A DNA stretch of 64,000 nt from an uncultured delta proteobacterium (lineage in GTDB: Bacteria; Desulfobacterota; Desulfobacteria; Desulfobacterales; SpSt-501): positions 65,155 to 129,154 of the forward strand of contig CAVQTH010000023.1 in NCBI GenBank assembly GCA_963716325.1, given 5' to 3'. Shown in pieces: positions 30,457 to 59,610 of this stretch (positions are counted from its first letter, which is position 1; each line of letters begins with the position of its first letter). Under the pieces are notes generated by a model. The model did no database searches, was not told where the DNA came from, and was given only the letters and a program-made list of their open reading frames with translations. Made by a program: the position numbers and the translations under genes.

Positions 30457-30550
30457 GGAGAGATGTCCGAGCTGGCCGAAGGAACACGACTGGAAATCGT
30501 GTGTGCTGCTAATAACGGCACCGTGGGTTCGAACCCCACTCTCTCCGCCA
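30457..30550 (+). tRNA. tRNA-Ser (anticodon GGA), CCA encoded; prophage integration target
   Basis: Acceptor GGAGAGA/TCTCTCC. Anticodon stem CACGA/TCGTG with loop CTGGAAA. Long variable arm. T-arm GTGGGTTCGAACCCCAC. Confidence 0.93.
30521..30550 (+). repeat. attL core (30-bp direct repeat, 3' end of tRNA-Ser GGA)
   Basis: CCGTGGGTTCGAACCCCACTCTCTCCGCCA is identical to 59581-59610. The flanking bases differ on both sides. Confidence 0.9.
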
Positions 30551-31434: not shown

Positions 31435-32454
31435 TCACTTCATCGCCCGAACGTTGTCCACTACCTTCTTCAAAACTCCCATGTCGTGCTCGGCGTAGTG
31501 CTTTTTCGTGATTGCTACGTTTGAATGGCGGAGAAGCGCGCTGATCTGGTTCATATCGACGCCTGCCTTTGACAGGGCCATCCCAAGCGAGTGCCTCCCC
31601 GCGTTGTTCAGCGGAAAGTATCCTACGCCCGCCTCTTTGCATGCCGCGTTCCATATATCGTAGATGTTCTTTTTGTAGACGCGCCCGGTGTCCGGATTGA
31701 TGAAAACGTATGGCGTGAGGTTTTGGCCGGCGGCCTCGATGGCGATCCGTGCTCCCTCTGTAAGCGGTATTGCCTCCTCTCGCGACTGCTTGACGATTTG
31801 CCAGACCTCACCGCCGTCCGCGCTCGGCGCGAACGTCCCCGCTATGACGATGCAATCACGCTGCACGTCAGCTTTCCGCAATGCACGGGCCTCCGAGACC
31901 CTACAGCCCGTTGCAAACAGGAAGGCATAGATCGGTCTATGCCTCACCGGGATCTTCTCAAGAACGGCCGCTTGTGTGTCGGCGTCGAGGTATTTGATCT
32001 TCTTCTGGTCGAGCTTGATGGGGATCAGCGCCGGCACTTGCGAAAGATACCCGTTTTCTCGTGCGTCCCGCAGGATCTCGAAAAGCAGCGCCTGGATGTT
32101 TTTTTTGTACTTGGGGGATTTAGGGATGGCGTTCAGAAACCGCTTGATCTTTTCATGCGACAGGTCCTCCCAGCCCCGCGGTTTGCCCTCGAACCATCCG
32201 CCTAGCAGCTTCTCGCCCTCGAGAATCAGACCGTTGGAATAGCGCAGCTCGCCGCCTTGCTTCTGGACGATGATCCCGGACTTCCATCCGACGCAGTCCT
32301 CCGACTTGCGCGCCTGGTAGCGCAGCTTGTCGATCGAGACGATGATCGCCGCGGGGTCGTTCGTGTATTTAACGAGATAGCAGTCCTTGTTGAAGGGATT
32401 GAGGCTGCGGGCGCGGCAGATGTGCATGAAGAAGATGACTTCCTGGTCGGTCAA
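31435..32454 (-). CDS. tyrosine integrase with an in-frame N-terminal Bet/RecT-like fragment (chimeric ORF, TTG start)
   Basis: The C-terminal two-thirds is a tyrosine recombinase (FATGCRVSEARAL, AGRHSLG, LLRHSNVAITKKHY). The N-terminal ~100 aa (LTDQEVIFFMHICRARSLNPFNKDCYLVKY...IIVSID) resembles the Bet/RecT annealase core. No ATG precedes it. Confidence 0.8.
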   Translation of the reverse strand: MTDQEVIFFMHICRARSLNPFNKDCYLVKYTNDPAAIIVSIDKLRYQARKSEDCVGWKSGIIVQKQGGELRYSNGLILEGEKLLGGWFEGKPRGWEDLSHEKIKRFLNAIPKSPKYKKNIQALLFEILRDARENGYLSQVPALIPIKLDQKKIKYLDADTQAAVLEKIPVRHRPIYAFLFATGCRVSEARALRKADVQRDCIVIAGTFAPSADGGEVWQIVKQSREEAIPLTEGARIAIEAAGQNLTPYVFINPDTGRVYKKNIYDIWNAACKEAGVGYFPLNNAGRHSLGMALSKAGVDMNQISALLRHSNVAITKKHYAEHDMGVLKKVVDNVRAMK

Positions 32455-43664: not shown

Positions 43665-44111
43665 ATGACCACGCGCATGAATCCCACCCGAATCATCCTC
43701 CACTGCTCGGCCACCGAGGATGGTCGGACCGTCTCCTGGAGTGCGATCCGCCGGTTTCATGTGGAACAGCGGGGCTGGGCGGACATCGGCTATCACTTCG
43801 GGGTCGAACTGGTGAATGACGGCTATGAGATCCTTCTCGGGCGATTCCCGGAACGGATGGGGGCGCACTGCCAGAACCAGAATTTCGACTCCCTGGGGAT
43901 TTGCTTCGTCGGCAGCTTCGACGCGAGTTCGCCGCCGCCGGCGCAGTGGGAGAGGGGGGTCAAGCTCGTCGCCTGGCTCTGCCGGCGGTTCATCATCGGG
44001 GCGGATAAAGTTTTCGGACACCGGGAGTTTGACCCGCAAAAGACCTGTCCGGGGCTCGCCTTCGAATTATCCAGGTTCCGCAGCGATCTGAAAAAGGAGC
44101 TTGCCCGATGA
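43665..44111 (+). CDS. N-acetylmuramoyl-L-alanine amidase endolysin (Amidase_2/PGRP, T7-lysozyme-like)
   Basis: IILHCSAT...GWADIGYHFGV...GAHC...GHREF...KTCPG zinc-amidase motifs. GGAGGA RBS before ATG 43665. Confidence 0.85.
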   Translation: MTTRMNPTRIILHCSATEDGRTVSWSAIRRFHVEQRGWADIGYHFGVELVNDGYEILLGRFPERMGAHCQNQNFDSLGICFVGSFDASSPPPAQWERGVKLVAWLCRRFIIGADKVFGHREFDPQKTCPGLAFELSRFRSDLKKELAR

Positions 44112-44734
44112 ACGCCCTTGCCCTGGTCAACGCCGTCTTGAAAGAGCTCCGGCAGCCGGTCGTCTCCACCCTGGCCAACGCAGAGCAGTACGTCCAAAAC
44201 GCCCTGTTCGCCCTAAATGCGACGGCCGGCAAACTCGCCTCGGGCAACGCATTGCCGTTTCTCGAAGCGGTCCAAGAGATCACGCTCGCAACCGGCACGC
44301 CGGACTATGCACTGGCGGCGGACCACGACCGGATCCTTGCCGACCCCTACATGAACGACCCCGCTCTGCGGCTCATCCCGAGGGTGAGCGAGCTCGTCTG
44401 GGGCGAGGAAACCCTGGGACGGACCCTGCAGGGAACGCCGGCTATCTGCCATCTCGCCGGCGGGAAGATCTGGTTCTGGTACGTCCCGGACGCAGCTAAC
44501 AACGGGAAGAAGGCCTTTGTCCGCTACCAGAAAAAGCCGGCCGAGCTCGCCGCAGATGCCGATGTCTCGCCCTTCGACGACTACGTTCTGATCACCGGGG
44601 CGGTTGCCAAGGTGAAAACCATCGACGGGGACGTGTCGCCGGCCGACGTGGAGGACCACCGCGACACGAAGCACAGCTACCTGGTCGAGCAGCGTCGGCA
44701 GACGCCGCGCTTCGTTCCGTATCGGGATTTCTGA
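44108..44734 (+). CDS. phage structural protein (adaptor/tail-tube-A-like position)
   Basis: 208 aa. ATGA overlap with the endolysin stop. Called from position only. Confidence 0.4.
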   Translation: MNALALVNAVLKELRQPVVSTLANAEQYVQNALFALNATAGKLASGNALPFLEAVQEITLATGTPDYALAADHDRILADPYMNDPALRLIPRVSELVWGEETLGRTLQGTPAICHLAGGKIWFWYVPDAANNGKKAFVRYQKKPAELAADADVSPFDDYVLITGAVAKVKTIDGDVSPADVEDHRDTKHSYLVEQRRQTPRFVPYRDF

Positions 44735-46210: not shown

Positions 46211-47068
46211 ATGTGGGGGTATGTAGCAGCAGCCATTGCGATGGCCATTGTTTCCGCAATTGCGACGAGCATGAACAAGCCCAAAGTCCCAAAGCCCCAG
46301 CCTCCGGCGAACTACAGCAGCCCAGAGGGGATGCAACGCTGGAACTCTGAAACCAACACCTACGAGTGGATCCCGACCCCGCTCACCCCTGAACAGGAGG
46401 CGGCCAAGAAGGCCCGCGAAGAAAAGATCGGTGGCCTGGAGGCGGGCCTCAACACGCCGGAGCCCGAGCGGATCGCCGAATGGGACCGCTTCCAGCAGTC
46501 ATACTCTGACCAGATGATGAAGCCGTTGACGGACCAGTACGCTATTGCCAAACGCAACCTCGAAGAAAACTTCGCCGCAAGGGGGTTGACCGGATCCCGG
46601 GCGCATGTGGACGCGCTCGCCGAGCTCGAAAAGGATTGGCAGGCGACTCAGGTTGACGTCCAGAACCGGGCGGTGCAAGCCCGCGAGTCGCTCGCGCAGC
46701 AGGATTTTCAAAACCGCCTGGCCACCCTGGAAGCGCTCCGCGGGGGCAAGAGCCTGGAAGAAGCCCAGGCGATCCGGCAGCAGGGGATCGCGCAGCAGGG
46801 GGTTCAGGGCGCAACCGCCATGCAGAACGCCCGCTGGGACCAGTCCATGCAGGGTGCGATGGCGCGCTGGGCGAACACGAACCAGGGGATTCAGGGCGGA
46901 TTGCAGGCGGGCAGCAACCTTGCGCTGCTCTACGGCCTGAGCAGCATGAAGCAGGGCCAGACGCAGCCCCAGACCCGGCAGCCGACCCCGACCACCAACC
47001 TTTCAAATCTGACGAGCCTTTGGGCCTCGCAGCAGAATCAACTGATCCCGTATCAGCCGGCTTGGTAA
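46211..47068 (+). CDS. phage internal/ejection-type protein (N-terminal TM segment, Q-rich coiled coil)
   Basis: MWGYVAAAIAMAIVSAIATS TM segment. GAAAGGAGAA RBS before ATG 46211. Confidence 0.4.
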   Translation: MWGYVAAAIAMAIVSAIATSMNKPKVPKPQPPANYSSPEGMQRWNSETNTYEWIPTPLTPEQEAAKKAREEKIGGLEAGLNTPEPERIAEWDRFQQSYSDQMMKPLTDQYAIAKRNLEENFAARGLTGSRAHVDALAELEKDWQATQVDVQNRAVQARESLAQQDFQNRLATLEALRGGKSLEEAQAIRQQGIAQQGVQGATAMQNARWDQSMQGAMARWANTNQGIQGGLQAGSNLALLYGLSSMKQGQTQPQTRQPTPTTNLSNLTSLWASQQNQLIPYQPAW

Positions 47069-47084: not shown

Positions 47085-48059
47085 ATGGCAAGCATCCTGA
47101 GTTTACTGACACAGCAAAACCCGGGAACAGCCGGCAGTCGAAAGTCCGCTTATCCCTCTCCACCGATTCCGGCTGCCGCCTACCGTGCACAGGCTCTGAA
47201 AACCTCAATTCCGTTGCTTTATGGCCAGATGCAAACCGCCGGGAGAAACCCCTACGACTTTTCCGGGCCGATCATGGGGTATGCAACCGGCCGGGCGATA
47301 GCTGATTACTCCGGTGCGATGCAGGAGGCCGAAGAGCAAAACCAGGCGGCCCAAATGCTGAACCGCGAGAAATGGACCAAAGCGCTGCAGGAAGATCCTG
47401 GGCTCCTGCAAAACCCGGCGAAGCTGATCCAGACTGCCATGATGATCGACCCGCACATCATGGAGAGGTTTAAAACCGCGCTCGAAGTATCCAAACTAAC
47501 TCAAGAAACCGACCGGATCGAGAAGCTGACTCCGGCTGAGAAAACGCTCAAGGAGGCCCAGGCGACCCAGGCCGGCAGCCAGGCGGCCGAGAACCTTGCT
47601 GGCGCTCAGCTGAAAGGCGAACAAGCTGCCACAGCTGGCGCGCTGCGCGGCCCGGAAGCCCGGCTCAAGGGTGCGATGGCAGGCAAATACGAACGCGAGA
47701 CCGGGCTGATGGGCCAGGAGAGCAAGTACCGCGTTCCGTCCTCGACCTATTCTCCAGTGACCGATGCCATGGTCGCGCAGTTCTGGCCGCTCGCCCAGAT
47801 GAGCCTGCCGGAGGAGCTCAAGAACAACGCCTCGATGCTGTTATCGGATCCCATGACCGGCAAGCCGAACGAGGCGAAGATCCGGTCCTTCCTGCCCTAC
47901 GACGTGCAGCAGCGCTACGACGCGATCAAGCTTCAGGCGGAGAAGAACGTCGCCGCCGGAATGACACCCCAGGAAGCTGTGCAAAGCGCCATGAGTGGGG
48001 CCGGGGCAGGGACCGCTCCCGCTCAGACGGAATTCCGTCCGCCGGTGAGGTTCAGGTAA
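47085..48059 (+). CDS. phage internal/ejection-type protein
   Basis: 324 aa, Ala/Gln-rich, with an AAGGAGG RBS. Precedes the giant protein. Confidence 0.4.
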   Translation: MASILSLLTQQNPGTAGSRKSAYPSPPIPAAAYRAQALKTSIPLLYGQMQTAGRNPYDFSGPIMGYATGRAIADYSGAMQEAEEQNQAAQMLNREKWTKALQEDPGLLQNPAKLIQTAMMIDPHIMERFKTALEVSKLTQETDRIEKLTPAEKTLKEAQATQAGSQAAENLAGAQLKGEQAATAGALRGPEARLKGAMAGKYERETGLMGQESKYRVPSSTYSPVTDAMVAQFWPLAQMSLPEELKNNASMLLSDPMTGKPNEAKIRSFLPYDVQQRYDAIKLQAEKNVAAGMTPQEAVQSAMSGAGAGTAPAQTEFRPPVRFR

Positions 48060-48060
48060 G

Positions 48061-51000
48061 ATGCCCGTTCCGCGATCGGTATTCGAGCAGGTCAACGAGT
48101 TTGAGCAGCAGGGCTATCGGCCCTCCGAGATCCTGGACGGGCTCGAACGCAGCCCGCAGTATTCGGACCTTGGCCGGCAAGTGCGCTCCTTCAGGCTCAC
48201 TGGCCGGGGGGACGACGAGATCCTGGCCGGCCTGAAGGAGTCTTACGTCCCGGAGCCGCCGGGGCTGCTGGAGCGCGCCGGCGGAAAGGCTTCCGAGATC
48301 CTGGCCGGGACTCCAGGTGCGTCGGCCGCGGAAGCCGTGCAATCCGTCGCGAAATCGTTTCAGCCGGGCGAGGTCGGGCGCTCGCTGGTGGGGGCGGGGG
48401 AGACTACGGCATCCCTTTTGACGAGCCTCTACGGGCTTCCCTTGTCGGGGCTCGCGGGTCTGGGGGCGCTGCCCTTCGGCGGGTTCGAAGGCGCGCAGAG
48501 GGCGATCGAGGAAACCCAGAAATACACGATCTATCAGCCCCAGACCGAACGCGGCCGGCAGATCGCCGGGGTCGCCTTCTGGCCGTTTGAAAAGCTGCAT
48601 GAGCTGGGCGGGGCCGCCGGCGAGAAGACCCTGGAAGCTACCGGCAGCCCGGGCCTTGCAACCGCCGCGGCCACTGCAGTTGAAATGGCGCCTTTTGGTT
48701 TGTCTCCGGCGCTGAAAGCAGTCAGGGGACGGGGGGCGGCGCCGCTTCCCAAACAGGGAGCGTATGCCGGACCGGGCGCCGGCCCCTATTCGGAGCGCGC
48801 CTCGGTAGTTGAAATGTACTCCGCCAAGCCCAGGCCGGCCCCGGTTGTCGAGGCGGAGGTGGTGGGCGAAACAGTCAATCCGCGGATCCCGCCTCCTCCG
48901 CCCAGGCTGGAAGCCCCTCGGCCGGCGCTTCCCGAACCGCCTCCGGCGCCCCCGCCGCCGCTTGAGCAGATCAACCTGCCGGTGGTCTATTCGGGGAAAG
49001 CGACCCCCGCATCTGCAGGCCCCGCACAAACCGGATCGACTCCAGCGCCGTCCCTACTGCCGCAGCCCTACGCCAAGCCTCTTGAGCGCCGGGCTTATCC
49101 GTCGATTCCCGTCACCGTTCCGAGCAAGTCCCCCTGGGAGCTGGAGGGCCAAAACAAGTCCCCGCTCAGGCTCCGTCCCCGGGATGAGTTCTGGATGATC
49201 GAATCGACGCTGCGCGATCAACCCAGGCCTTCTGAGGCGACCGGGCCGCAGACCGTCGTTTTGACAGGCGGCCCGCCGGGCGCGGGCAAGTCCAGCGGGA
49301 CGAGAGAACTCGGGATTGACCGCCGCCGCTTCGTGGTGGCCGATGCCGACGAAATGAAAAGGAAATCCGGCTGGGATGCCGGAGAGGATGCCTCCGCCTT
49401 CCATGAGCAAAGCTCCACCGTCAACAAGAAGCTGCGCGACTTAGCCATCGATCGGGGATACAGCACGATCTACGACTCGCTCATGTCCAACTATGAGGAG
49501 GCGAAAAGTACAATCAACAAGGCAAGGGAGAAGGGTGCAAAGGTCAATTTGGTTTTTACAGACATCGATGCGGGCACCTCCCAGGCGCGCTCGATGATGC
49601 GAAACATGCTCATCGACCGGGAAAGCGGGGCGCCGCTGTCCATTCGCAAGATCCCCGTCGAAACCTCCATCAAGGGGCATAACAATTCGGCTGCCACTTT
49701 CCGGGCGCTGTTCGATGAATTCCGCGGGGATCCGCGGGTCGATATGGTGTTGATGGACAACAATGTGGATCTGGCCGCCCCCCGGCTGGTGTTCAAGCAG
49801 GAGGCCGGAAAGATCACGGTCGGCGACCAGGCGCTTTTTGACAGCTTTCTCGGCATGAAGTATCATAATGTCGGTAAAGGGGGTGAGATTCGCTATGAAA
49901 GATCCAACCCTGTTCGAGACCTTGAAGCGTTCGGAGGCCTCGAATCCCTCCAGCAGCGAGCCCTCGAAGCCGCCCGTGCCGTCGCCGCCAGAAGCGGGGG
50001 ACGACTTGTCGCGGATAGCGGAGGACTTGCTGGAGGAAAAGTTCCTCTCGGACCGCGAGCTGGCGAGAGCGGGAATCTTCAAGGACAACTGGCCGCCCGC
50101 CTACCGTCAGCGCCTGATAGACAGCCTCAAGCAGAGCTGACCGCTACGCCGGTCCCGCCTGCCCAGCCTGTAGCACCCCAGATTCAACCCCAAAAAGTTC
50201 GAAATCTCTACCCAGAGGGCATTCCGCCCGAGCGGGCGAAGCGCGCCTTGCGCCGTTCTGCAAGGATTAAGATCGATAAAACCAACACCCTGCGCGGCGC
50301 GATCAACAAGATGGGCGGCATCAACCCCGGCAACTTCAAAGGCGAGTTCAAAGAAGCTCCGGTCGCCGTCAAGTTCCTGCTGAAAAAATCAGGCGAGCAC
50401 CTGGACCTGGCCGAGGCCCGGCTGCGGGAAGAAGGCTGGCTGCGGCCGGACGAAAACCTGATCGATGTGCTGCGCGATCCCGCCAGCCTGCGCCGAAACA
50501 AGGTGGCGGCGGAAGGTGCCTCCAAGCAGGAGCGCTTCAAAACCGAGGTCGAAAAGCGATTCGAGCGCGAGATGGCCTGGGAGCCGGAAGAGCCCCCGCC
50601 CGGCGAATACGTCACCCTGGAAGCTGAGGATCTGCCGAAGGGCCGGAAGCTGACTCTGATCGACGACAGCGCAGCCGGCTGGGACGTTTATGAAGTGGTC
50701 GAGAAAGACCCCTTCGGCGTGGTCCTGCAGGACGGCAAAACGATCAACCTGTCCCCCGGCCAGCGCGTGCAGGTTCGCAAACAGGATATCGTAAAACCGG
50801 CAGCAGGGGAGGGTGTTGACGCTGCGACGGGTCTGTCTGATAATGAAGGCGTTTGGAACGAAATCCATGAACCCAAAGCAGCCTACCGACAACTCCAGCT
50901 CGACTTCTCGGCCCCCGCAAAACCCCGAGGGCCGGCCGGTACCGCGCAAGGTCATTCCCTTCCCGCGGACTTACAGGCCCGCGTCCGAACCGGAATGGCA

Positions 51001-54000
51001 ACTACCGGATCCCTCCGAGCAGGCTCCCTATACGCCAGAGGACCCGCCGAAGCCGCCAGCCTCTTAGCCCACATCCGCAAAAGCCCGCAGGAAAATCTTT
51101 ACCTGGTCGCGGTCGATGAGGCCGGGAAAATCCTCGAGATCCACCGGTACTCCAAGGGAACCAAGAGCGCTGCCTACGCGCATCCGGTCGAAATGATCGG
51201 GTCGGTGATGAACGTCCCCGGCACCAAGCGGGTCTTCGTCGCCCACAACCACCCCGGCGGCAGCGCGCTCGCCTCCCGCGAAGACATTGCGCTTCTTGAG
51301 CATATCGAAGCTGGCCTAAAACTGGCGGATATCGAGACCATCCCGATCATCATCGCCGGGACCAAGTGGAAAACCTTCTCACCGGTAGGCGATGAAGTGG
51401 GCATCCCGCCGGCCGTGCGAAAGGTTGATCTCCCGATTAAAGAGCGGGTTTTTGCCATGCAGCGCCCCGGCGAGCGGGCGAGTTTCCCCCAGGAAGCCGT
51501 GAGGATCAAGAACGAGCTCTACGGCCGCGATTCCGAAGGCTTCATGCTGCTCGACAACAAACTGCGTGTGTCGGGCTTCCTGGAGCACAAGCCGGGCCGG
51601 CCGATGGCGGAGGTGGCGGCCGACCTGATCCGATCCGCCGAGAAAACAAACGCGGCCGGCTACCTGTTTTTCAGCAACGAGCCGATCAAGGGCGGCGGGA
51701 GCCGGGAGCGGTTTCTTACCCAGATGAAGACCGCAACTGCCGAGAACCTCCAGCTGTTCGACGTGTTCGTAAAAGGCGAATCCGCCCCTTTGAACGCCGC
51801 GGTCAAGGAATCCTCGGCGGCCGGATACAAAAACCTGAAAAGCGGCGGAACGCTTTACTCGGGCATCCCCATCCCGGCGATCATCGACTTTCTCACCAGC
51901 ACGAAGGTCAAAGGGTTTTTCGACCCTTTCCACAACTTGCCGCAGAAGGAAGCCTACCTGGAGTCGCGCTACAAGAGCTTCGGCGGGATCGCCCGGGTAG
52001 AAAAGATCGTCGAGCGGGTGTTCGAGCGCACCAAGGGCCTGGATGAGCAGACTCGGGCTGATCTTTTCCGCTACTTGGACGGCCAGGCGGTGCAGCTGCC
52101 GCCGGAGGTTCAGCGGCTGGTCGATACCCTGAAAATAGTCAACAACACGGTCGGCAAGATGCTGGTCAATCGCGGGCTGCTCTCGCCGGAGGCCTTCGAG
52201 GCGCACAAGAACCAGTACGTCCGCTACCTGTACCTCAAGCACGTTCTGGGCGACAAGTTCAACATCACCGGCCGGGGCGGCCGGATGGATCTCACCTACC
52301 TCAAGCACCGCAAGGATCTGACCGACGAGCAGCGGAAGGCGATCGGCTTGGTCGAGGACGTTTCGGTCGCCGAGCCCTACGGTCTTTCCAAAAGTCTTTC
52401 CGACATCGTGAAGCACGACTTTTACGAGCAGATTGCCGGAAATTCAGAGTGGGTCTGGGAGCCTTCCGTGATTGAGGCAGGCGAGATCCGACGCTTCCCG
52501 GACATAGCCTCGGCCTACCGGATGGTAGCAAGGCATGCCCGGGCGGGAGATCCCGTGCAGGTGCGGCGTTTGCCGAACGGCCAGTTCTTCCTTGAGCGCA
52601 CAGCCGGCGGGGAGCCCGTGCGCCACAAGATCGGCCTGGCCAGGGCGCGGGCAGAGCTTGAAGCCCAGCGCCGGGTCGCGCGCGAATCCCAGGCGCCGGA
52701 GGTCCTGGACCGGCTGCAGCGCCTGGAGAAGGCGGTTTCCGACGCCGAGGCCCAGGCCGGCAAGCTGACCGCGGATTTCGTGGAAATGCCCGACTCCCCG
52801 AATTACGGGCCGCTCGCCGGCGCTTATGTCCGCAAAGAGATCGCCCGGGATGTGGTGCCGTTCATTGGCCGGATCCCTGACAAGGTACATGCCTCGGCCT
52901 CGCTTAACACTGTGATTTCGGCCTTCGAGGCCGGAATGACGGCCTTTAAGGTCTCCAAGACCGCGCTCAACCTACCGACCGCCGCGAGAAACATCTATTC
53001 CAACTTCGTGCAGCTCAACATGAGCGGGATCCCCTGGTACGAGATCCCCGGCTACATGGCCAAGGCCGCGAACGAAATGAGGACCAAGGGCCGGCTCTAC
53101 GGGGAAGCCTTCCGGAACGGGCTCACGAAAACCAACTGGACCGAGGCCGAGATCGGCGAGGTGCTTTCCGCCTTCAAGCAGATGCAGGGCGGGGGGCTTG
53201 AGACGGTCGTGTCGAAGCTCCGGGACGTGGCCAAATACTACGGCAAGATCGACGACTTTTTTAAACTCGCCAAGTTCATCGAGCAGCGCGAGTCGGGCGC
53301 GTCGGTCGGAAAAGCGATCCGCGAGGCCCAGAAGTGGGGGATGGATTACTCCATCGCCGACCCCTCGGTCCGCATGGCCCGGCGGTTTGCAGCCCCTTTT
53401 TTGTCCTACCCGTACAAGGTGACCCCGCTCATCGCCGAGGCGATCCAGAAACGCCCCTGGGTGATCGCAAAATACCTGGCGCTGCCCTACGCCATGTTTG
53501 AGGCCGCGAAATATGCCCTGGATCTGACCGAGGAGGATTTCAAGCGGCTGAAAAAGCTGCTGCCCGAGTACGTCCGCAAGAATCCAACTTATGCGGTCCT
53601 GCCCTGGAAGAGCCCGGAGGGCAACCTGCAATGGGTCAACCTGGGGTACTATTTCCCCTGGTCAACGCATGTTGAACTCGCCCGGGGGGTCGCCTCCGGC
53701 AAGCCGGAAAGCATGGTGCAGCTGATCGGCAACCCCTATCTGGATATGCTCTGGAGCCTCAAGAGCGGCAAGGGGGACGATCCGCCGCGGGACTCCTTCA
53801 CCGGCCGGGAAATCTACAACCGGCTGGACAGCCCGGCCGAGAAGGCTCTCAAGCTCTCAGAATGGCTCTACAACAAGTGGGCGCCGACCATGCTGACCCG
53901 CGAGGGCGCTGCCGGCTACACGGCCCGGGCGGTCACCGGCGAGAAGGACCGCTATGGGCGCAAGGTCACCCCGGAGCAGGCGGTCGGCCGCTGGATGGGG

Positions 54001-54171
54001 GTTAATATCGTATCGCCAACCCCTATGCAGGCGGCGGTCGAGAAGCGGGCGAAGATTTCGGATCTCAAGGCGGCGCTTTACCGGGCGCTGCGGGATCCTA
54101 ATCTGAAGCCGGCGGAAAAGGCCGAGCTGATGAATCGCTTTGGCGCGGAACTCAAGGAAGTGGGGGAATGA
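48061..54171 (+). CDS. 2036-aa phage polyvalent (virion/ejection-type) protein with Zeta-toxin-like P-loop kinase and RadC/JAB domains
   Basis: P-loop VVLTGGPPGAGKSSG plus VVADADEMKR...FHEQSS...VNLVFTDID (about 49250-49800). JAB/MPN+ motif VAHNHPGGSALASREDIALLEHI (about 51060-51380). Pro-rich linkers. Large C-terminal helical region. Confidence 0.8.
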   Translation: MPVPRSVFEQVNEFEQQGYRPSEILDGLERSPQYSDLGRQVRSFRLTGRGDDEILAGLKESYVPEPPGLLERAGGKASEILAGTPGASAAEAVQSVAKSFQPGEVGRSLVGAGETTASLLTSLYGLPLSGLAGLGALPFGGFEGAQRAIEETQKYTIYQPQTERGRQIAGVAFWPFEKLHELGGAAGEKTLEATGSPGLATAAATAVEMAPFGLSPALKAVRGRGAAPLPKQGAYAGPGAGPYSERASVVEMYSAKPRPAPVVEAEVVGETVNPRIPPPPPRLEAPRPALPEPPPAPPPPLEQINLPVVYSGKATPASAGPAQTGSTPAPSLLPQPYAKPLERRAYPSIPVTVPSKSPWELEGQNKSPLRLRPRDEFWMIESTLRDQPRPSEATGPQTVVLTGGPPGAGKSSGTRELGIDRRRFVVADADEMKRKSGWDAGEDASAFHEQSSTVNKKLRDLAIDRGYSTIYDSLMSNYEEAKSTINKAREKGAKVNLVFTDIDAGTSQARSMMRNMLIDRESGAPLSIRKIPVETSIKGHNNSAATFRALFDEFRGDPRVDMVLMDNNVDLAAPRLVFKQEAGKITVGDQALFDSFLGMKYHNVGKGGEIRYERSNPVRDLEAFGGLESLQQRALEAARAVAARSGGRLVADSGGLAGGKVPLGPRAGESGNLQGQLAARLPSAPDRQPQAELTATPVPPAQPVAPQIQPQKVRNLYPEGIPPERAKRALRRSARIKIDKTNTLRGAINKMGGINPGNFKGEFKEAPVAVKFLLKKSGEHLDLAEARLREEGWLRPDENLIDVLRDPASLRRNKVAAEGASKQERFKTEVEKRFEREMAWEPEEPPPGEYVTLEAEDLPKGRKLTLIDDSAAGWDVYEVVEKDPFGVVLQDGKTINLSPGQRVQVRKQDIVKPAAGEGVDAATGLSDNEGVWNEIHEPKAAYRQLQLDFSAPAKPRGPAGTAQGHSLPADLQARVRTGMATTGSLRAGSLYARGPAEAASLLAHIRKSPQENLYLVAVDEAGKILEIHRYSKGTKSAAYAHPVEMIGSVMNVPGTKRVFVAHNHPGGSALASREDIALLEHIEAGLKLADIETIPIIIAGTKWKTFSPVGDEVGIPPAVRKVDLPIKERVFAMQRPGERASFPQEAVRIKNELYGRDSEGFMLLDNKLRVSGFLEHKPGRPMAEVAADLIRSAEKTNAAGYLFFSNEPIKGGGSRERFLTQMKTATAENLQLFDVFVKGESAPLNAAVKESSAAGYKNLKSGGTLYSGIPIPAIIDFLTSTKVKGFFDPFHNLPQKEAYLESRYKSFGGIARVEKIVERVFERTKGLDEQTRADLFRYLDGQAVQLPPEVQRLVDTLKIVNNTVGKMLVNRGLLSPEAFEAHKNQYVRYLYLKHVLGDKFNITGRGGRMDLTYLKHRKDLTDEQRKAIGLVEDVSVAEPYGLSKSLSDIVKHDFYEQIAGNSEWVWEPSVIEAGEIRRFPDIASAYRMVARHARAGDPVQVRRLPNGQFFLERTAGGEPVRHKIGLARARAELEAQRRVARESQAPEVLDRLQRLEKAVSDAEAQAGKLTADFVEMPDSPNYGPLAGAYVRKEIARDVVPFIGRIPDKVHASASLNTVISAFEAGMTAFKVSKTALNLPTAARNIYSNFVQLNMSGIPWYEIPGYMAKAANEMRTKGRLYGEAFRNGLTKTNWTEAEIGEVLSAFKQMQGGGLETVVSKLRDVAKYYGKIDDFFKLAKFIEQRESGASVGKAIREAQKWGMDYSIADPSVRMARRFAAPFLSYPYKVTPLIAEAIQKRPWVIAKYLALPYAMFEAAKYALDLTEEDFKRLKKLLPEYVRKNPTYAVLPWKSPEGNLQWVNLGYYFPWSTHVELARGVASGKPESMVQLIGNPYLDMLWSLKSGKGDDPPRDSFTGREIYNRLDSPAEKALKLSEWLYNKWAPTMLTREGAAGYTARAVTGEKDRYGRKVTPEQAVGRWMGVNIVSPTPMQAAVEKRAKISDLKAALYRALRDPNLKPAEKAELMNRFGAELKEVGE

Positions 54172-54174
54172 CGC

Positions 54175-55020
54175 ATGAGCACGCTTGCGAGACTCTACAA
54201 TTTCGGAAACGACTACCTCAGCAACATGCCGATCGACGATCAGAAGATGGACGCCGAGCTGAACCAGCTCGTCTCCGGCCACAACGACCAGGAGGGGCGG
54301 ATAGGGACGTTGGAAGGCGCGGCCATGAAGAAGGACGGCTCGGTCGACATGACCGGTCCGCTCAAGTGGTCCGAGAGCGGGGACGAGTACATCCGGGTCC
54401 CCCGGCTCACCACCACCCAGCGTGACGCGCTGGCCTCGCCGGTCGCGGGCTATCTGATCTACAATTCTACGGACGGACGCTTCCAGATTTACACCGGCTC
54501 GGCCTGGGCGGACGTGCTTTCCTCCGTGCTGGCGGCTCTCAAGACGTCCACGCCGGCTCTGCGGCTGATCGGCACCGAGACGAATGCCAAAGACTTCCGT
54601 GTGGTCGAATCCGCTGGCAGTTTGATCGTACAGCTCAACACCGGGACCGAGGCCTCGCCGACCTGGACCGACAAGTTTAAGATCCGCTCGGACGCGACAC
54701 TTTCCACCGTTCAAACCCTGACCGGCCTGACCCGCAAGCTGACCAAGATCACGGCCGCAACCTATACCGTGGTTGACGACGACGACATCATCCTGATCGA
54801 CGCAACGTCGAACAATGTGACTGTCACCATGCAGGGGGTCGCCAACCGCAACGGCCGGGCGCTGACTTTCAAACGGATCGACGGAAGCGCGAACACCGTG
54901 ACCATCCAGCGCGCCGGGACAGACCAGATCGACGGGGGGACGTCGGTTTCTCTCACCTCCTATGCGAACAAGTACCTGGTCGCCGACGAGGCCGCTACCA
55001 TGTGGCGGACCTTCTCTTGA
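54175..55020 (+). CDS. tail fibre-like protein
   Basis: The N-terminus (L.N.P..D.KMDAELNQLV.GHN) and YNSTDGRFQIYTGSAW resemble phage fibre/collar proteins. Late-operon position. Confidence 0.5.
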   Translation: MSTLARLYNFGNDYLSNMPIDDQKMDAELNQLVSGHNDQEGRIGTLEGAAMKKDGSVDMTGPLKWSESGDEYIRVPRLTTTQRDALASPVAGYLIYNSTDGRFQIYTGSAWADVLSSVLAALKTSTPALRLIGTETNAKDFRVVESAGSLIVQLNTGTEASPTWTDKFKIRSDATLSTVQTLTGLTRKLTKITAATYTVVDDDDIILIDATSNNVTVTMQGVANRNGRALTFKRIDGSANTVTIQRAGTDQIDGGTSVSLTSYANKYLVADEAATMWRTFS

Positions 55021-55023
55021 TGA

Positions 55024-56679
55024 ATGAAAAACACCCCTTTTCACCTGCTCCAATGGCAGTACGACCTCCTGGGCGGCCAGGAGATCGAGACCCTCCGCCG
55101 CGGCAACCTGGACGGGGCAGTCTTGACCGCGCAGGACGGCCAGGTCGTCATCCCGGAGGCCTCCGGCGGCGGCCGGGTGCACCACTTCCGCGGGGCCTGG
55201 CTCACGACCGTTGAATTCTCCTGGGAGGGCTATTGGGCCGCTCCGAAAGGAACCCCGGTTAACTATTTCGAGGGCGGCAGCGCGGTCAATTCCGGCAACC
55301 AGACGATCGTCATCCTGGGGACCGACCCCGGGAACGGGACCGCTCTCCAGGTCTATTATTACTTCGGCAGCGGTCAGACCTTCGCCCCGAAAACCCCGAT
55401 CGAAGCCTATCCCGCCTTTCAGCCCTGCCGGCAGGGGGCCAAGCAGAAATTTTCTTCCGCTCCGGACGCCGACCAGTGGATCGCGCTCGTCATGCTGGAG
55501 GCCCGCGCTCGCTGGGACGACTTCAAGCGCTGCTACGGCTGGAGTATCATCGAGAGCCTGAAAAAGTTTGCGGAGTCGGGCGACCAGGCCATCATTGACG
55601 ACTTCAACCGCGACCCCTCCCGGGTGCGTGACGAGGGGCACTGGACCTATTTCGGCACGGACGCCGCCAGTACACTCACACCGTCGATCACCGACAAGGG
55701 AACGCTCCGGATCGACTCGAACATCGCCGAGGGCGGGTTTGGCTATTTCGGCTGGGGGCGGCCGATCTATGTACCGCCGGCGGCCGGAAAAATCCTGATG
55801 CTCTTCAAGGGGCAGGGCACAGGCCGCGCCTGGCAGCTTGCCCTCAACAGCGATCCGGCCGGAGCCTACGAACTGGACAAGATATTCTATTACGGGGTCG
55901 TGGACAATTCGGTCGACTGGCGGCAGCTGGAGGCGTCTTTCGAGCAGTTCACCAAGATCAAGAACCTGATCTGGGACGGGGACCGGATCGACTGGAACAT
56001 CTGGGGGGTGACGCCGGAGCAGCGCTATTACATGGGGGAGCTGGTCGGGGCGACGGCGGGCGAGCTCAGCCGGCACCAGGCGGAATGGATCGAGGGCGGC
56101 TTCAACCACGGCCAATGTTTGCGGGTGGACATGCAGCACATCAACACCCGCTTTGCGAACACGACGAGCCTGCGCGTCTCGACGACTCCTCCGATCGACA
56201 CCCGTACCGTGGAGGGGATCTCCTTCGGCGTTCGCTGGATCTTCGACGCATTCGCCGTTCACCAGCTCTGGGTTGAGATCGTGGACGGGCAGTTTTCGCC
56301 GGAGGAATTGGGCGGAGCTTCGGCCTGGTGGTACATTGACGGCTCCGAGCTCGCCTACTGGAAGCGGATCAATTTGAAATGGACCGATCTCAAGTGGGGT
56401 TGGGAAAACGTCCCGAATCTGAACCCGATCAACCAGATCCGGTTTAACTTTGTTCTCAAGACCAATTTCGGAGGCATGAGCTCGGTCCGGCAAGAAACCA
56501 GCACGGCTCTTATGGATGATTTTAAATGGATCCCGTCCGGGCAGAGTGCGATGGTCAGGGAAACCTATGCCGACTTTCTGGCTGGCGGAGGGAGCCGGTA
56601 TCTGAGCAACGCGCAGATCAACATCGCTCCTGGTGAGTCGCTAAGGAGGCGGAGCATAGGGAGCATTATAGTTTGGTAA
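55024..56679 (+). CDS. phage tail/host-recognition protein (hypothetical)
   Basis: 551 aa, Trp/Gly-rich and beta-type in composition. Last gene of the late operon. Confidence 0.4.
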   Translation: MKNTPFHLLQWQYDLLGGQEIETLRRGNLDGAVLTAQDGQVVIPEASGGGRVHHFRGAWLTTVEFSWEGYWAAPKGTPVNYFEGGSAVNSGNQTIVILGTDPGNGTALQVYYYFGSGQTFAPKTPIEAYPAFQPCRQGAKQKFSSAPDADQWIALVMLEARARWDDFKRCYGWSIIESLKKFAESGDQAIIDDFNRDPSRVRDEGHWTYFGTDAASTLTPSITDKGTLRIDSNIAEGGFGYFGWGRPIYVPPAAGKILMLFKGQGTGRAWQLALNSDPAGAYELDKIFYYGVVDNSVDWRQLEASFEQFTKIKNLIWDGDRIDWNIWGVTPEQRYYMGELVGATAGELSRHQAEWIEGGFNHGQCLRVDMQHINTRFANTTSLRVSTTPPIDTRTVEGISFGVRWIFDAFAVHQLWVEIVDGQFSPEELGGASAWWYIDGSELAYWKRINLKWTDLKWGWENVPNLNPINQIRFNFVLKTNFGGMSSVRQETSTALMDDFKWIPSGQSAMVRETYADFLAGGGSRYLSNAQINIAPGESLRRRSIGSIIVW

Positions 56680-56735
56680 TCGGGGATTGACATAAAGTGC
56701 TTCCCTCTGAAACTGTATCAGTTAAAATAATTTTT

Positions 56736-57230
56736 TTAAGGCAGTATCCCTAAAATCTTCCACTTATCCTTCCACTGCTCCAACCTTCGGTTATTTATCG
56801 AATGGTGAGTCGACTCCTGCGACACTGGCCTCTTTCCGAGATTTTTTTCCAAATATGCAGCATGGCATTCATAAATATTGTTTTTTACCCACCACTCAGG
56901 AACTATATAGAAATCTGGTGGGTTCTTCCCTCTGGATAAATCGACAAATATCCAAAAAGATGTTTCATCCCTCTTTATTGAGCATTTTTTTCCATGGTTT
57001 ATTGTGCTTTGCCAGTCGCCTGCCGTTTTGGTTTTCACCTGAATATGGACGGTGCGATTTTGGTTTATATCACAAGCAAGAATGTCAATTCTTGGCATAT
57101 TGCCGGAAAAGGTAACTGCATAAGCGCCCCTGCGATTCAGTTCGGCAGCGACGTAATATTCTCCGGCCCTTGCTGTCTGCTGGTTTCTTCCCCCTTTGGC
57201 CATAATTACTTCTTTAAATGGTTGTGTCAT
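56736..57230 (-). CDS. DUF4365-like PD-(D/E)XK nuclease-fold protein (prophage cargo)
   Basis: GEYYVAAEL...PRIDILACD...VHIQVKTK gives an E / D / (Q)xK arrangement. Low-GC gene. Start lies 3 nt after the GNAT stop. Alternative ATG at 57203. Confidence 0.55.
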   Translation of the reverse strand: MTQPFKEVIMAKGGRNQQTARAGEYYVAAELNRRGAYAVTFSGNMPRIDILACDINQNRTVHIQVKTKTAGDWQSTINHGKKCSIKRDETSFWIFVDLSRGKNPPDFYIVPEWWVKNNIYECHAAYLEKNLGKRPVSQESTHHSINNRRLEQWKDKWKILGILP

Positions 57231-57233
57231 TGA

Positions 57234-57812
57234 TTATCTCAGGATTGAATCAAATCTCATAATCGGCCTTGTTGGCGAACGACGAGCCACTTCCGAAAAC
57301 CCCGCCGACTCAAATGCTTTCGGAATTCCAGTCCAGGCGAAAGCCGGCGCAATCATCTTGTCGCCCTTAGGCTCAACCGGGTAGGCCTCAATAATGCGGC
57401 CGCCTTGGTCACGTACATGATCGACGGCAGCGCGAAGCAACTGGGTGGAAACGCCTTTTTTCCGATACGCTCGGTGAACGAAGAGGCAGGAAACCGACCA
57501 ACAGGGTTGATCATCGACAGGTTTTAGGATCCGTGAGCGGTTCAAGGCAGGGTAATGATCGCGGGGGGCCACCGCACACCAGCCGACCGGTTGACCCTCA
57601 AAATAACCAAGCAGGCCCGGAACGGCCCCCGATTCAACGATAGCCTTCATCGCTTTCCGGTTAGCCTCGCCCTTCTGGCACTCGAACTGCTTGCGCGGCA
57701 ACCGCCAGAGCATGCACCAGCAACCGCCGCAGGCGCCGTTCTTGCCGAAAAGCAGCTCAAAATCCAGCCAGCGGGCTTTCTTCAGCGGATGGCATTCGAG
57801 ATGAATGTCCAA
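57234..57812 (-). CDS. GNAT-family N-acetyltransferase (prophage cargo)
   Basis: Acetyl-CoA site VHRAYRKKGVSTQLL. Cys-rich GACGGCWCMLWR N-terminal motif. TTG start. Confidence 0.75.
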   Translation of the reverse strand: MDIHLECHPLKKARWLDFELLFGKNGACGGCWCMLWRLPRKQFECQKGEANRKAMKAIVESGAVPGLLGYFEGQPVGWCAVAPRDHYPALNRSRILKPVDDQPCWSVSCLFVHRAYRKKGVSTQLLRAAVDHVRDQGGRIIEAYPVEPKGDKMIAPAFAWTGIPKAFESAGFSEVARRSPTRPIMRFDSILR

Positions 57813-58068
57813 TATGCCTTGGATCCTGTCGTTAGAATCTCAATGGGCAACCGATAACTTTTTGATGCTGTCATAGAAATGTTGAACTTTCAAGGAAATC
57901 AACGATCGGCTAAATGCAGGGGTGGGGCTGTTGGTGGGAGCGGATATAATTCTTAACGCCACTATGCGCTGGGTGATAGGTTTTTTTAAGAAGAATTTTT
58001 GCGAATCAAAGCGCGGAAAACACCTACTTGATTAGCTGTCAGTACCAATCGATCAGCGCTAACCATGG

Positions 58069-59055
58069 CTATTTGAAAAATTCGGATACGTATTTGAGTG
58101 CAGTAAAAACGATGATAGCGCTTAGCATCCACTTGATTGCTTTTGCAGGAACATACTTCTGGCAACGCGCACCCATATACATCCCGGCGATTCCCCCCAG
58201 ACCAAACAACGACCCCAGCAGCCAGTCCGGTGCGATCGACAAGCTCGGATAAAAAGGTGCGATCGCCTGATAGAAGATGACGCCAGCAACCGATGTCACA
58301 AAGGTTCCCATCAGAGCGGCACCCGCAACTGTGTATACGGGAAGCCCGAAAAATGACACAAAAAATGGCGCTATTATGGCACCACCACCAATTCCGTAAA
58401 TACCTCCCACTATACCGACAATGAAGCTAAGGGAGAAAACGCCGACAACGGGCACATCAAACTGCTCACCGTAAAATTCATACTTAACTCGCCGCAGAGT
58501 GAATTGAATTATTTTGACAGCCGGGAGGGTTTCACCACCCTTGATTGCGGATTTTTCCGCTTTGCGTCTGTGTTCACGAACAAGTTCCTGGAAGCGCTTT
58601 TCGCTTGAAGCCTTGTCCATGCCGGGAAGAGGTTTTCGGATCAGGTCCCTCAGCATACGAACTCCAATATACAGAAGGACGATTGCCGCGAATAATTTGA
58701 AGTTCTTTGGGTCTGGCAGGTACCCAATTCGAACAACAGCCCCAATAAAAACACCGGGGAGTGTCCCAATGATGACGGCCCATGTGAGCGGCCAGACCAT
58801 ACGGCCTTCTTTGAAGTAGCGGTAGACGCCGCTTGGAATGGCCACAACGTTAAATAACTGATTTGTTGCGCTTACTGAAGGGTTTGTGTAACCGAGAAAG
58901 GACATTTGAAATGGCAAGAGCAGGAAAGCGCCAGAAACCCCTCCCATGGATGTGAAGAAAGATACAAAAAAGGCAACCGCAACGGGAACTATTGGGCTGG
59001 TCTCAACTCCTGATACCGAAAACAGCATGTATTTCCATGCCTCTTTAAATTTCAC
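58069..59055 (-). CDS. TauE/SafE-family sulfite/anion exporter (prophage-border cargo)
   Basis: About eight TM segments with duplicated GxxGGxxG-type motifs (GIVGGIYGIGGGAI). GTG start; alternative ATG at 59028. Confidence 0.8.
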   Translation of the reverse strand: MKFKEAWKYMLFSVSGVETSPIVPVAVAFFVSFFTSMGGVSGAFLLLPFQMSFLGYTNPSVSATNQLFNVVAIPSGVYRYFKEGRMVWPLTWAVIIGTLPGVFIGAVVRIGYLPDPKNFKLFAAIVLLYIGVRMLRDLIRKPLPGMDKASSEKRFQELVREHRRKAEKSAIKGGETLPAVKIIQFTLRRVKYEFYGEQFDVPVVGVFSLSFIVGIVGGIYGIGGGAIIAPFFVSFFGLPVYTVAGAALMGTFVTSVAGVIFYQAIAPFYPSLSIAPDWLLGSLFGLGGIAGMYMGARCQKYVPAKAIKWMLSAIIVFTALKYVSEFFK

Positions 59056-59342
59056 CTGTTATTTTCTGTGATTTAAAGTAATTCTAAGAAATAAAAATAA
59101 AAAAGTCAACATAATATTAGAGGGTTATTCTACCTATAAAGTTTTAGACTGATTTCGGCAAAGTTTTTGATTTAACCAGATTTTGGAATGTGTTTGAGTG
59201 GCGATAACAGGGGCGGGGTAGGATCGAGGTATTCAATACCATCACTAAGCAGTTTCCATGCCCAGGGGCTATCCGCTAAACTTCTTGTTTTTTGGACAGT
59301 TTTAGGATAGAAATTCGGGGAGTGGTGGCGCTGAAATTAAAC

Positions 59343-59397
59343 AAAAAAATGGCGGAAGTGCATGGGAATCCTTCCCACGCACTTAAGCCGCCGCCAT
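59343..59397 (-). terminator. strong minus-strand intrinsic terminator just inside attR
   Basis: On the minus strand: ATGGCGG..AAGTGCGTGGG-loop-CCCATGCACTT-CCGCCAT followed by T7. No minus-strand gene lies upstream of it. Confidence 0.55.
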
Positions 59398-59438
59398 AGA
59401 CTCAACAGTGATGTTAAAAAACAAATTCACCAGGGGTC

Positions 59439-59463
59439 GCCGCGGTTATGCGGCCATTTTTTT
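59439..59463 (+). terminator. weak plus-strand terminator-like hairpin
   Basis: GCCGC-GGTTAT-GCGGC, then CA and T7. Confidence 0.35.
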
Positions 59464-59470
59464 GTGGTCT

Positions 59471-59498
59471 TTGACTGTACCCGTTTCTGTGCTAATAT
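59471..59498 (+). promoter_or_regulatory. outward-facing sigma-70-like promoter (TTGACT-16-TAATAT) at the prophage right end
   Basis: TTGACT at 59471-59476 and TAATAT at 59493-59498. Points across attR toward dnaX. Confidence 0.45.
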
Positions 59499-59509
59499 CC
59501 AAACGATCG

Positions 59510-59529
59510 TGCAAATGGAGTGCAAATGG
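59510..59529 (+). repeat. two phased TGCAAATGG 9-mers (candidate arm-type sites, attR arm)
   Basis: TGCAAATGG at 59510-59518 and 59521-59529, 11-bp phasing. Same motif and orientation as the attL-arm copies. Confidence 0.5.
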
Positions 59530-59580
59530 CTGAGCGGGTTTCAAAAAATAAATATAAATTACGGCAGGTTACTGAGGGGG

Positions 59581-59610
59581 CCGTGGGTTCGAACCCCACT
59601 CTCTCCGCCA
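59581..59610 (+). repeat. attR core (30-bp direct repeat; tRNA-Ser 3' remnant)
   Basis: Identical to 30521-30550. Confidence 0.9.

Follow-up and report, generated by a model that had tools for sequence, protein, structure and literature searches.

The ejected proteins gp16 of phage T7 and gp50 of phage N4, the latter a virion RNA polymerase (vRNAP), are large internal proteins that deliver an enzyme to the cell before the DNA or at the same time. Injected polyvalent proteins, a concept set out by Iyer, Burroughs, Anand, de Souza and Aravind in 2017 (PMC5512222), combine at least two disparate enzymatic domains in one polypeptide. Here we describe a giant gene of a prophage from an uncultured delta proteobacterium, located in a 64,000-nucleotide stretch of contig CAVQTH010000023.1 (assembly GCA_963716325.1, positions 65,155 to 129,154; this whole stretch is the window, and all coordinates count from its first letter). 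Its product of 2036 amino acids (aa) is a conserved scaffold, consisting of the segments N1, C1 and C2, with about 1000 aa of cargo inserted between N1 and C1 (Table 1). The cargo comprises a Zeta-type kinase and a RadC-type JAB domain. We consider it probable that the gene encodes a large ejection-type internal-virion protein, in which a modular scaffold carries enzyme cargo that acts at the start of infection. The protein belongs to a described class, the phage polyvalent/ejection proteins, and the concept as such is not new.

In cyanopodophage A4 (A-4L; PDB 9K2V), several internal proteins, some of them very large and equipped with enzymes, are encoded between the nozzle and fibre genes. 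The proteins gp26-29 form a pre-ejectosome that was verified by cryo-electron microscopy (cryo-EM) and mass spectrometry, and gp26 and gp27 are internal (PMC12002296). The gene order of A-4L, in which nozzle gp31 is followed by gp29, gp28, gp27 and gp26 and then by gp25 and fibre gp24, is the same layout as in the prophage. As the last gene before the fibre genes, gp26 encodes an all-alpha protein of 1114 aa that matches the fold of the C-terminal scaffold when predicted structures are compared. A4 differs in that its lytic enzymes reside on gp28, that kinase and RadC cargo is absent and that sequence similarity is marginal. Stx phage phi24B, which is also temperate and short-tailed, has a giant polyvalent protein, too: its gp47 (2807-2811 aa; LPD5, LPD1, MuF-C, LPD38) was abundant in virions by proteomics, and a role as ejection protein has been proposed (bioRxiv 10.64898/2026.04.10.717836). 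LPD5, LPD1 and MuF_C also occur on the N1/C1/C2 scaffold, whereas the C-terminal module of gp47 is of the LPD38 type, resembles C1/C2 in fold only (the profile match is not significant) and is accompanied by other cargo. Relatives of our protein carry an SLT domain in the cargo slot, as T7 gp16 does at its N-terminus; unlike T7 gp16 and N4 gp50, to which it has no detectable sequence or fold similarity, our protein carries enzymes for small molecules or nucleic acids and not a transglycosylase or RNA polymerase.

The prophage protein shares with the polyvalent proteins surveyed in 2017 (PMC5512222) that it is a giant polypeptide with unrelated enzymatic domains and linkers, encoded among the virion genes of a portal-terminase phage. 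Its kinase and RadC domains score above the gathering thresholds, two further domains are conserved, and a zeta-like kinase is listed in the survey. Its scaffold family has MuF_C, LPD1/3/5, ddrB-ParB, SNF2, methylase and lysozyme-type domains, and the domain network of the scaffold and cargo relatives bears out the term polyvalent, which a first-pass annotation of this DNA had already used. In the survey, by contrast, RadC was confined to the polyvalent proteins of conjugative elements, and the zeta-like kinases of phages were always fused to MuF; our protein has both domains on a scaffold that is not of the MuF type, and no MPTase-type processing peptidase was detected. New are the very large scaffold family with a clear slot, for which neither a Pfam or PHROG model nor a solved structure exists, a RadC domain with two partner domains as frequent phage polyvalent cargo, contrary to the 2017 survey, and a Zeta-family kinase in a polyvalent setting without the motif for UDP-N-acetylglucosamine (UDP-GlcNAc, UNAG). 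In podovirus-like phages, looking into the scaffold slot is a simple way to find injected cargo.

A conserved scaffold with a cargo slot

The open reading frame (ORF) of the giant gene ends with TAA; a single base separates its ATG from the stop codon of the 324-aa gene before it, and a GGTGAGG Shine-Dalgarno-like site lies upstream. It is a real gene and not an artefact of high GC content, because an identical protein (P0001; P and L numbers denote collected proteins and loci) is already on record in public assemblies and a 2030-aa orthologue made up of the same seven segments is encoded on L009, an independent IMG/VR contig. As claimed in the first-pass annotation, the ORF is the largest of the prophage, accounting for ~21% of the element, and all motifs quoted there are present at the expected spacing: GGPPGAGKSSG (aa 403-413), VVADADEMKR (425-434), FHEQSS (447-452) and VNLVFTDID (495-503) in the kinase and VAHNHPGGSALASREDIALLEHI (aa 1060-1082) in the RadC/JAB domain. 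Both domain assignments were likewise upheld by profile searches. Pfam detected Zeta_toxin (PF06414) at aa 392-555 (E 5e-17, 62.4 bits, gathering cut-off 22.3), overlapped by a weaker AAA_33 match, and RadC (PF04002) at aa 996-1102 (E 2.9e-15, 56.7 bits, gathering cut-off 22.1). PHROGs returned 'DNA repair protein' over the RadC part and 'ATPase' over the kinase part, and neither NCBIfam nor an exact-sequence cluster look-up gave a name for the 2036-aa protein. Similar proteins already carry automatic annotations in UniProt/BFVD and GenBank. The Pro-rich linkers that had been postulated between the domains are real, with Pro contents of 24% in aa 251-389 and 17% in aa 651-734.

The N-terminus and what had been called a 900-aa helical region of the protein are the conserved scaffold of a huge family into which enzymes are inserted, a point that had been missed. 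The description as helical holds for the C-terminal ~790 aa, which are mostly helical, and fails for aa 1111-1249, an alpha/beta domain attached to RadC. In an exhaustive HMMER search, aa 1250-2036 matched 2,873 cluster representatives at E<=1e-3, 1,971 at <=1e-10 and 606 at <=1e-30, and the match lies essentially always at the C-terminus of proteins that are between ~330 and 5,651 aa long. When we mapped the segments onto 164 collected proteins, C1 was present in 142 and C2 in 155. N1 is rich in Gly and Ala and, according to its hydropathy, has one moderately hydrophobic segment at aa 119-137. The scaffold alone measures ~900-1100 aa in minimal relatives such as P0072, a 918-aa protein that consists of N1, C1 and C2 only and has zero Pfam hits.

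The closest relative, P0002 (2132 aa, from the syntenic phage L002), aligns with aa 1-311 of our protein at 61% and with aa 1286-2036 at 70%; its middle has nothing in common with the query and holds a weak RelA_SpoT match instead. Within the same phage lineage, in which the flanking genes are identical, L010 encodes a 1250-aa version, L002 and L003 carry other cargo, and L009 carries the cargo of the query. Because P0002 shares the ends only, minimal members consist of N1, C1 and C2, and sister phages differ in cargo, we describe the protein as a scaffold in which N1 and C1 enclose a hypervariable slot, flanked here by the Pro-rich linkers. In a Pfam census of 21 family members no model covered the scaffold, and there is also no PHROG model for N1, C1 or C2. 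The cargo found in these 21 members comprises MuF_C, RadC, LPD5, LPD1, LPD3, Zeta_toxin, SLT and ddrB-ParB as well as SNF2/ResIII/Helicase_C, an Eco57I-type methylase, GGDEF and CPT. More broadly, proteins that have the scaffold or the cargo of the query carry MuF_C, LPD1/3/5, ddrB-ParB, ART-PolyVal, PBECR3 and LPD38, none of which is present in the query itself.

In two relatives, P0048 (aa 602-1425) and P0070 (aa 2454-3290), the C2 core is broken by an insertion of ~275 aa, so that the scaffold may have a second site for cargo or insertions.

Comparison of the query with the L009 orthologue gave dS values of 0.5-0.9 and dN/dS ratios of 0.06-0.12 in N1, the kinase, domain X, RadC, the post-RadC (post) domain, C1 and C2, with 0.10 for the kinase, 0.12 for X and 0.09 for RadC. 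Ratios were higher, 0.23-0.38, in two of the three linkers. Because dN/dS is ~0.1 at high dS in all domains, cargo and scaffold are both maintained by purifying selection.

The kinase and the RadC unit

AvrRxo1 is a Xanthomonas effector of the type III secretion system (T3SS) with NAD 3'-kinase activity (PMC5491322, PMC5087710) that comes with an antitoxin-like partner, and zeta and PezT are type II toxins. The cargo kinase shares with these proteins the P-loop kinase fold, the Lys and Ser/Thr of Walker A and the catalytic Asp. We mapped its residues through P0138, partly by eye via conserved flanking anchors. Walker A, G404PPGAGK410S, aligns with GQPGSGK46T of zeta, and D430 in VVADAD aligns with zeta D67 (VIDND67; D66 in PezT), the Asp that deprotonates the substrate (PMC6362051). 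Walker A and D430 are both kept in P0004 (41% identity) and L009. The catalytic residues K410 and D430 are retained on alignment, as is the full JAMM motif of the RadC domain described below; their loss would have counted against the assignments.

What the kinase lacks is the GTXR motif (zeta Gly117-Thr121), which is required for UDP-GlcNAc binding (PMC6362051). In zeta the corresponding stretch reads EGTGRT and in PezT EGTLRT; at this position, which follows a conserved 'GY-hhh' anchor, the query has Y471DSLMSN477 and P0004 has YDSLLSN, with the acidic residue kept and Thr and Arg lost. Because GTXR is replaced by YDSLMSN, the residues argue for a competent Zeta-family kinase that is probably not a UDP-GlcNAc kinase. 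Most likely it phosphorylates a nucleotide-type small molecule other than UDP-GlcNAc. A Foldseek search with the kinase model ranked AvrRxo1 (4z8t) first (E 7e-6, target TM-score (TMt) 0.42, 16% identity), ahead of zeta (1gvn, E 4.5e-4) and PezT (2p5t, E 1.2e-3); gonococcal zeta1 was also matched, and polynucleotide kinases were much weaker. These matches put the kinase in the Zeta clade. The positions of the catalytic residues T167 and D193 of AvrRxo1 are held by S411 and D430. AvrRxo1 may therefore be the nearer analogue, and it is also a delivered effector and not a toxin of a toxin-antitoxin pair, as we assume for our protein, whose delivery we infer. It is set apart by the identity of only ~16% and by its antitoxin/chaperone partner, for which the prophage has no counterpart. 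The preference for AvrRxo1 over zeta is soft, as the model reaches only low to medium confidence, because no deep kinase alignment was available: the mean predicted local distance difference test (pLDDT) score was 58.7 for the mid-region and ~50-80 for the kinase blocks. By sequence, the kinase retrieved from the solved structures only adenylate kinase or Ral at E~0.2-1, with zeta at E 1.5.

The first-pass annotation had taken the kinase for a poison of peptidoglycan precursor synthesis. In this classic Zeta scenario, UDP-GlcNAc or UDP-MurNAc would be phosphorylated, peptidoglycan synthesis locally weakened and DNA entry thereby helped. Such a role was proposed for the zeta-like domains of polyvalent proteins (PMC5512222) and is in line with the Zeta_toxin score above threshold, the fold matches to zeta, PezT and gonococcal zeta1 and the cell-wall enzymes (SLT, LT_GEWL) that other family members hold in the same slot. 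We nevertheless think it rather unlikely and do not retain the claim, given the replaced GTXR motif, in P0004 as in the query, and the better fold match of AvrRxo1; in addition, depletion of a cytoplasmic precursor pool would be too slow and too global for a single entry event. 'Zeta toxin' labels in phage proteins should not be taken to mean peptidoglycan-precursor kinases.

The toxin activity of zeta and PezT and the antitoxin-like partner of AvrRxo1 would also fit cargo that serves as a toxin for prophage addiction or abortive infection, following the logic of Zeta toxin-antitoxin systems. Searches of the flanking genes with PHROGs, Pfam and NCBIfam revealed structural genes and no adjacent epsilon/PezA-like antitoxin or other small partner gene. 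Moreover, the kinase domain is part of a 220-kDa late structural protein that is translationally coupled to an upstream structural gene, and relatives hold non-toxin domains in the same slot. We give the toxin scenario very little credence.

The second cargo enzyme is a RadC-type JAB/MPN+ domain with a complete JAMM site, E1044...H1062-x-H1064-x7-S1072-x-x-D1075, of which the core HxH-x7-S-x-x-D is kept in the relatives examined. It resembles the RadC homologue 2qlc in sequence (E 9e-4) and more clearly in structure (Foldseek E 2.5e-7, TMt 0.81, root-mean-square deviation (rmsd) 2.2). Unlike cellular RadC/YicR, it has no N-terminal helix-hairpin-helix (HhH) part and is accompanied by a conserved domain on either side, X and post. 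Its scores against the NCBIfam models for full-length cellular RadC, to which it aligns over the JAB half only, are far below the equivalog cut-offs (NF000642, 47.5 bits against 180; TIGR00608, 41.2 against 133.85). Domain X, helical in its N-terminal half and beta-rich in its C-terminal half, always precedes this RadC subtype, and the post domain always follows it. The profiles of X and post retrieved only spurious matches from the PDB (protein A repeats and others), and X has no Pfam relative. P0015, a 915-aa protein with domain X, contains a ParB/Srx-like 'NGHRR' stretch at aa 708-774; X therefore associates with ParB-like modules, too, and not with RadC alone.

The conserved X-RadC-post block spans aa ~693-1241 and moves between elements as a unit. 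The whole block recurs at 39% identity as a stand-alone protein of 774 aa, P0013, and the RadC and post part recurs in the giant proteins P0005, L007 and L014/L015. RadC was present in ~10 of the 33 loci examined and also in a complete 65-kb 'Podoviridae sp.' genome, in which a 2166-aa gene is annotated as 'DNA repair protein'. P0013 itself has a Gly/Ala-rich hydrophobic C-terminal tail and is encoded in a ~10-kb island (L035:5900-16500) together with two HTH_17 genes, a Toprim/DnaB_C primase-helicase, a small terminase subunit and an integrase, which is the layout of a phage satellite similar to phage-inducible chromosomal islands (PICI-like).

The modelled post domain has the order of helices and strands H-E-E-H-E-H-E, the same as RadC, and is devoid of metal (His) ligands. 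We therefore put forward the hypothesis that it may be a degenerate JAB-like duplicate, i.e., an MPN--like partner. An hhalign comparison of post and RadC was co-linear over 116 columns at a non-significant E of 0.18, and BLAST found nothing. It had been suggested that the JAB domain cleaves ubiquitin-like or other conjugates. The JAB assignment stands, and conjugate cleavage is uncertain, as RadC-clade domains are predicted to have no groove for the ubiquitin tail and to use nucleic acids or nucleotides as substrates (PMC5512222); RadC has also been called a 'putative nuclease' (PMC12826799). The X-RadC-post unit is a tractable system in which to study RadC function.

RadC had been reported only from conjugative-element polyvalent proteins (PMC5512222), which could point to an origin of our protein from such an element. 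However, the gene belongs to an att-bounded prophage, where terminase, portal, capsid, adaptor and fibre genes surround it, neither a type IV secretion system (T4SS) nor a relaxase is present, and RadC recurs on the phage scaffold as described above. The conjugative-element explanation deserves scarcely any weight, and we ruled out both it and the toxin-antitoxin explanation on gene context.

Proposed packaging and ejection

The local gene order is adaptor, hub-like gene, transmembrane protein, 324-aa protein, giant gene and fibre genes. This order supports a location where short-tailed phages put internal/ejection proteins, and the ejection-protein position claimed for the giant gene was thus borne out by its adaptor, hub-like and fibre gene context. 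An AlphaFold2 model of aa 1250-2036, based on a 40-sequence alignment, is mostly helical with a small beta insertion (pLDDT 83.3, predicted TM-score (pTM) 0.84). Among predicted viral structures (BFVD), Foldseek matched this model to the C-terminal chunks of phage proteins. One match was annotated as 'Zeta toxin domain containing' (E 4e-25), and others were annotated as 'ART-PolyVal-like', 'Helicase/UvrB', 'Large polyvalent protein associated domain 38' and 'LT_GEWL domain'. The BFVD match to an A-4L 'tail protein' corresponds to A4 gp26 (E 1.3e-7, query TM-score (TMq) 0.39). Cellulophaga phi19:3 and Ralstonia phage Alix were also among the phages with fold matches.

We propose that the N1 and C1/C2 scaffold would load the protein into the capsid core and take part in the ejection apparatus. 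A few copies may be packaged along with the products of the two small genes upstream. All of these would be expelled through the tail at infection, and the domains of the giant protein would unfold and refold independently, one by one, with the flexible Pro-rich linkers possibly helping. During the first minutes of infection, the cargo enzymes would work on host metabolites or on nucleic acids, and their action may serve host takeover or counter-defence. The domain identities, the intact active sites, the scaffold-plus-insert anatomy, the cargo swapping, the purifying selection and the gene position are direct observations.

Several results weigh against this proposal. Packaging and ejection themselves are read from the gene position and from the A4 and phi24B precedents, and experimental evidence for packaging concerns these analogues, or possible remote homologues, and not the scaffold family itself. 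Foldseek found nothing significant for the C-terminal model in the PDB (best E 0.75), although this copy of the database should include the ejection proteins of T7, P22-type phages and A4, and the scaffold family profile gave only spurious coiled-coil matches and no solved chain among the PDB sequences. The family hidden Markov model (HMM) matched A4 gp26 marginally, through one conserved motif, and its match to phi24B gp47 was also only marginal. PHROG annotation of the neighbours in the distant loci L007 and L014 was uninformative. Membership of the scaffold in LPD38 (PF18857) was rejected: there was no Pfam match at E<=1, none of the 21 family members had one, and hhalign gave E 0.25-0.31. 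The links to LPD38 that remain are the resemblance at the level of the fold and the N1 segment common to the LPD38-type proteins P0009-P0011, which also match phi24B gp47.

The lack of a match to any solved ejection protein and the adjacency of the giant gene to fibre genes would be compatible with a tail- or capsid-associated structural protein that is not ejected and whose enzymes act late in the producing cell (in assembly, DNA processing or lysis) or on the cell surface. A-4L gp26 and gp27 were also first annotated as 'tail protein'. However, both A4 proteins were later shown to be internal, phi24B gp47 is abundant in virions yet invisible outside, and the gene order of short-tailed phages groups the giant gene with internal proteins. 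In addition, an ATP-dependent kinase and RadC need cytoplasmic substrates and cofactors. A non-ejected structural protein is in our view quite improbable.

The ejection proposal can be extended to a general platform for capsid loading and injection, formed by N1, C1 and C2, that delivers pre-made counter-defence cargo. In this extended form, the kinase would hit NAD+ or a nucleotide immune signal, and X-RadC-post would act as an intramolecular pair of MPN+ and MPN--like domains, either taking off a conjugate installed by a defence system or processing a nucleic-acid intermediate. We regard this extension as speculative and, taken as a whole, unlikely. If true, the kinase would blunt NAD-consuming or cyclic-nucleotide defences, RadC, whose function has been disputed for decades, would receive its first defined role, and a search through the ~2,900 scaffold clusters for what their slots hold would be a systematic route to new injected anti-defence activities.

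The prophage and its neighbouring genes

The prophage of ~29.1 kb is bounded by an exact direct repeat of 30 bp. Two tandem tRNA-Ser genes with the anticodons cga and gga lie at 30264-30550, and the 3' end of the second one is the attachment site. The genes for an integrase, a replication-O protein (RepO) and TerL all lie within the att bounds, as do those for the P22-like portal, the capsid protein, the SU10-type adaptor, the hub/nozzle-like protein and the fibre-like proteins; dnaX is outside. We take the element to be a temperate, short-tailed phage of ~29 kb that has integrated at a tRNA-Ser gene, and the genome around it is probably that of a Desulfobacterota. Relatives in genome assemblies come mainly from Desulfobacterales, 'Deltaproteobacteria' and Syntrophaceae metagenome-assembled genomes (MAGs) and from strain NaphS2, with single relatives from Verrucomicrobiota and Clostridia MAGs. 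The host, probably a Desulfobacterota of the sulfate-reducer type, is not a convenient model. For the 324-aa Ala/Gln-rich protein encoded directly upstream of the giant gene, searches of PHROGs, Pfam and NCBIfam gave no family match.

Table 1. Coordinates in the window of the prophage ends, the giant gene with its segments and the adjoining genes.
Feature	Coordinates	Strand	Evidence
attL, 3' end of tRNA-Ser(gga)	30521..30550	+	30-bp repeat, tRNA call
SU10-type adaptor	44108..44734	+	PF24175, E 1e-10
Tail hub/nozzle-like protein, 485 aa	44737..46194	+	phrog_5107, phrog_578; syntenic in L002, L003, L009, L010
285-aa protein with N-terminal transmembrane helix, candidate small ejection protein	46211..47068	+	hydropathy 1.81 over 19 aa; start as in L001
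324-aa Ala/Gln-rich protein, candidate second ejection protein	47085..48059	+	position, synteny; translationally coupled to giant gene
Whole giant gene, 2036-aa polyvalent, probable internal-virion (ejection-type) protein	48061..54171	+	ORF; identical protein on record; L009 orthologue
N1, N-terminal scaffold domain, aa 1-250 (conserved core ~98-249)	48061..48810	+	common to minimal members and LPD38-type P0009-P0011
Pro-rich linker 1, aa 251-389	48811..49227	+	composition; partly common to P0002 only
Cargo 1, Zeta/AvrRxo1-type P-loop kinase, aa 390-650	49228..50010	+	Pfam, Foldseek, motif mapping
Pro/Gly/Ala-rich linker 2, aa 651-734	50011..50262	+	composition; relaxed constraint, dN/dS 0.38
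Cargo 2a, domain X, aa 735-915	50263..50805	+	conserved in P0013, P0014, P0015, L009
Cargo 2b, RadC-type JAB/MPN+ domain, aa 960-1110	50938..51390	+	Pfam, PDB 2qlc, complete JAMM
Cargo 2c, post-RadC alpha/beta domain, aa 1111-1249	51391..51807	+	conserved in P0005, P0013, L007, L014
C1, first C-terminal scaffold part, aa 1250-1522	51808..52626	+	142/164 relatives; confident helical model
C2, conserved C-terminal scaffold core, aa 1523-2036	52627..54168	+	profile search; fold matches
281-aa fibre/trimer protein directly downstream of giant gene	54175..55020	+	PF26696 PTL_trimer (precomputed, identical gene); PHROG fibre-like matches
attR, second 30-bp repeat copy	59581..59610	+	direct repeat

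The distal ~2.9 kb inside the att bounds (56700-59580) have a GC content of 50-52%, compared with ~62% elsewhere, and encode a GNAT acetyltransferase (57234-57812, minus strand) and a TauE/SafE-type exporter (58069-59055, minus strand). This stretch is likely to be moron cargo or a secondary insertion. Next to attL, a 338-aa ORF (31435-32454, minus strand) matches RecT at aa 1-92 and Phage_integrase at aa 161-323, which reflects either an unusual fusion, a truncation or an artefact of ORF listing. Long antisense ORFs lie opposite the structural genes, e.g., an 878-aa ORF at 53857-56493 (minus strand) against the giant and fibre genes; with translations rich in Arg, Pro and Gly, they are typical high-GC artefacts. 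In the sister phage L002 (L002:1513-3336), the major capsid gene is in two pieces of 80 and 249 aa around a 245-aa ORF with a faint LAGLIDADG_3 match, and the interruption may be a homing-endonuclease intron or an intein.

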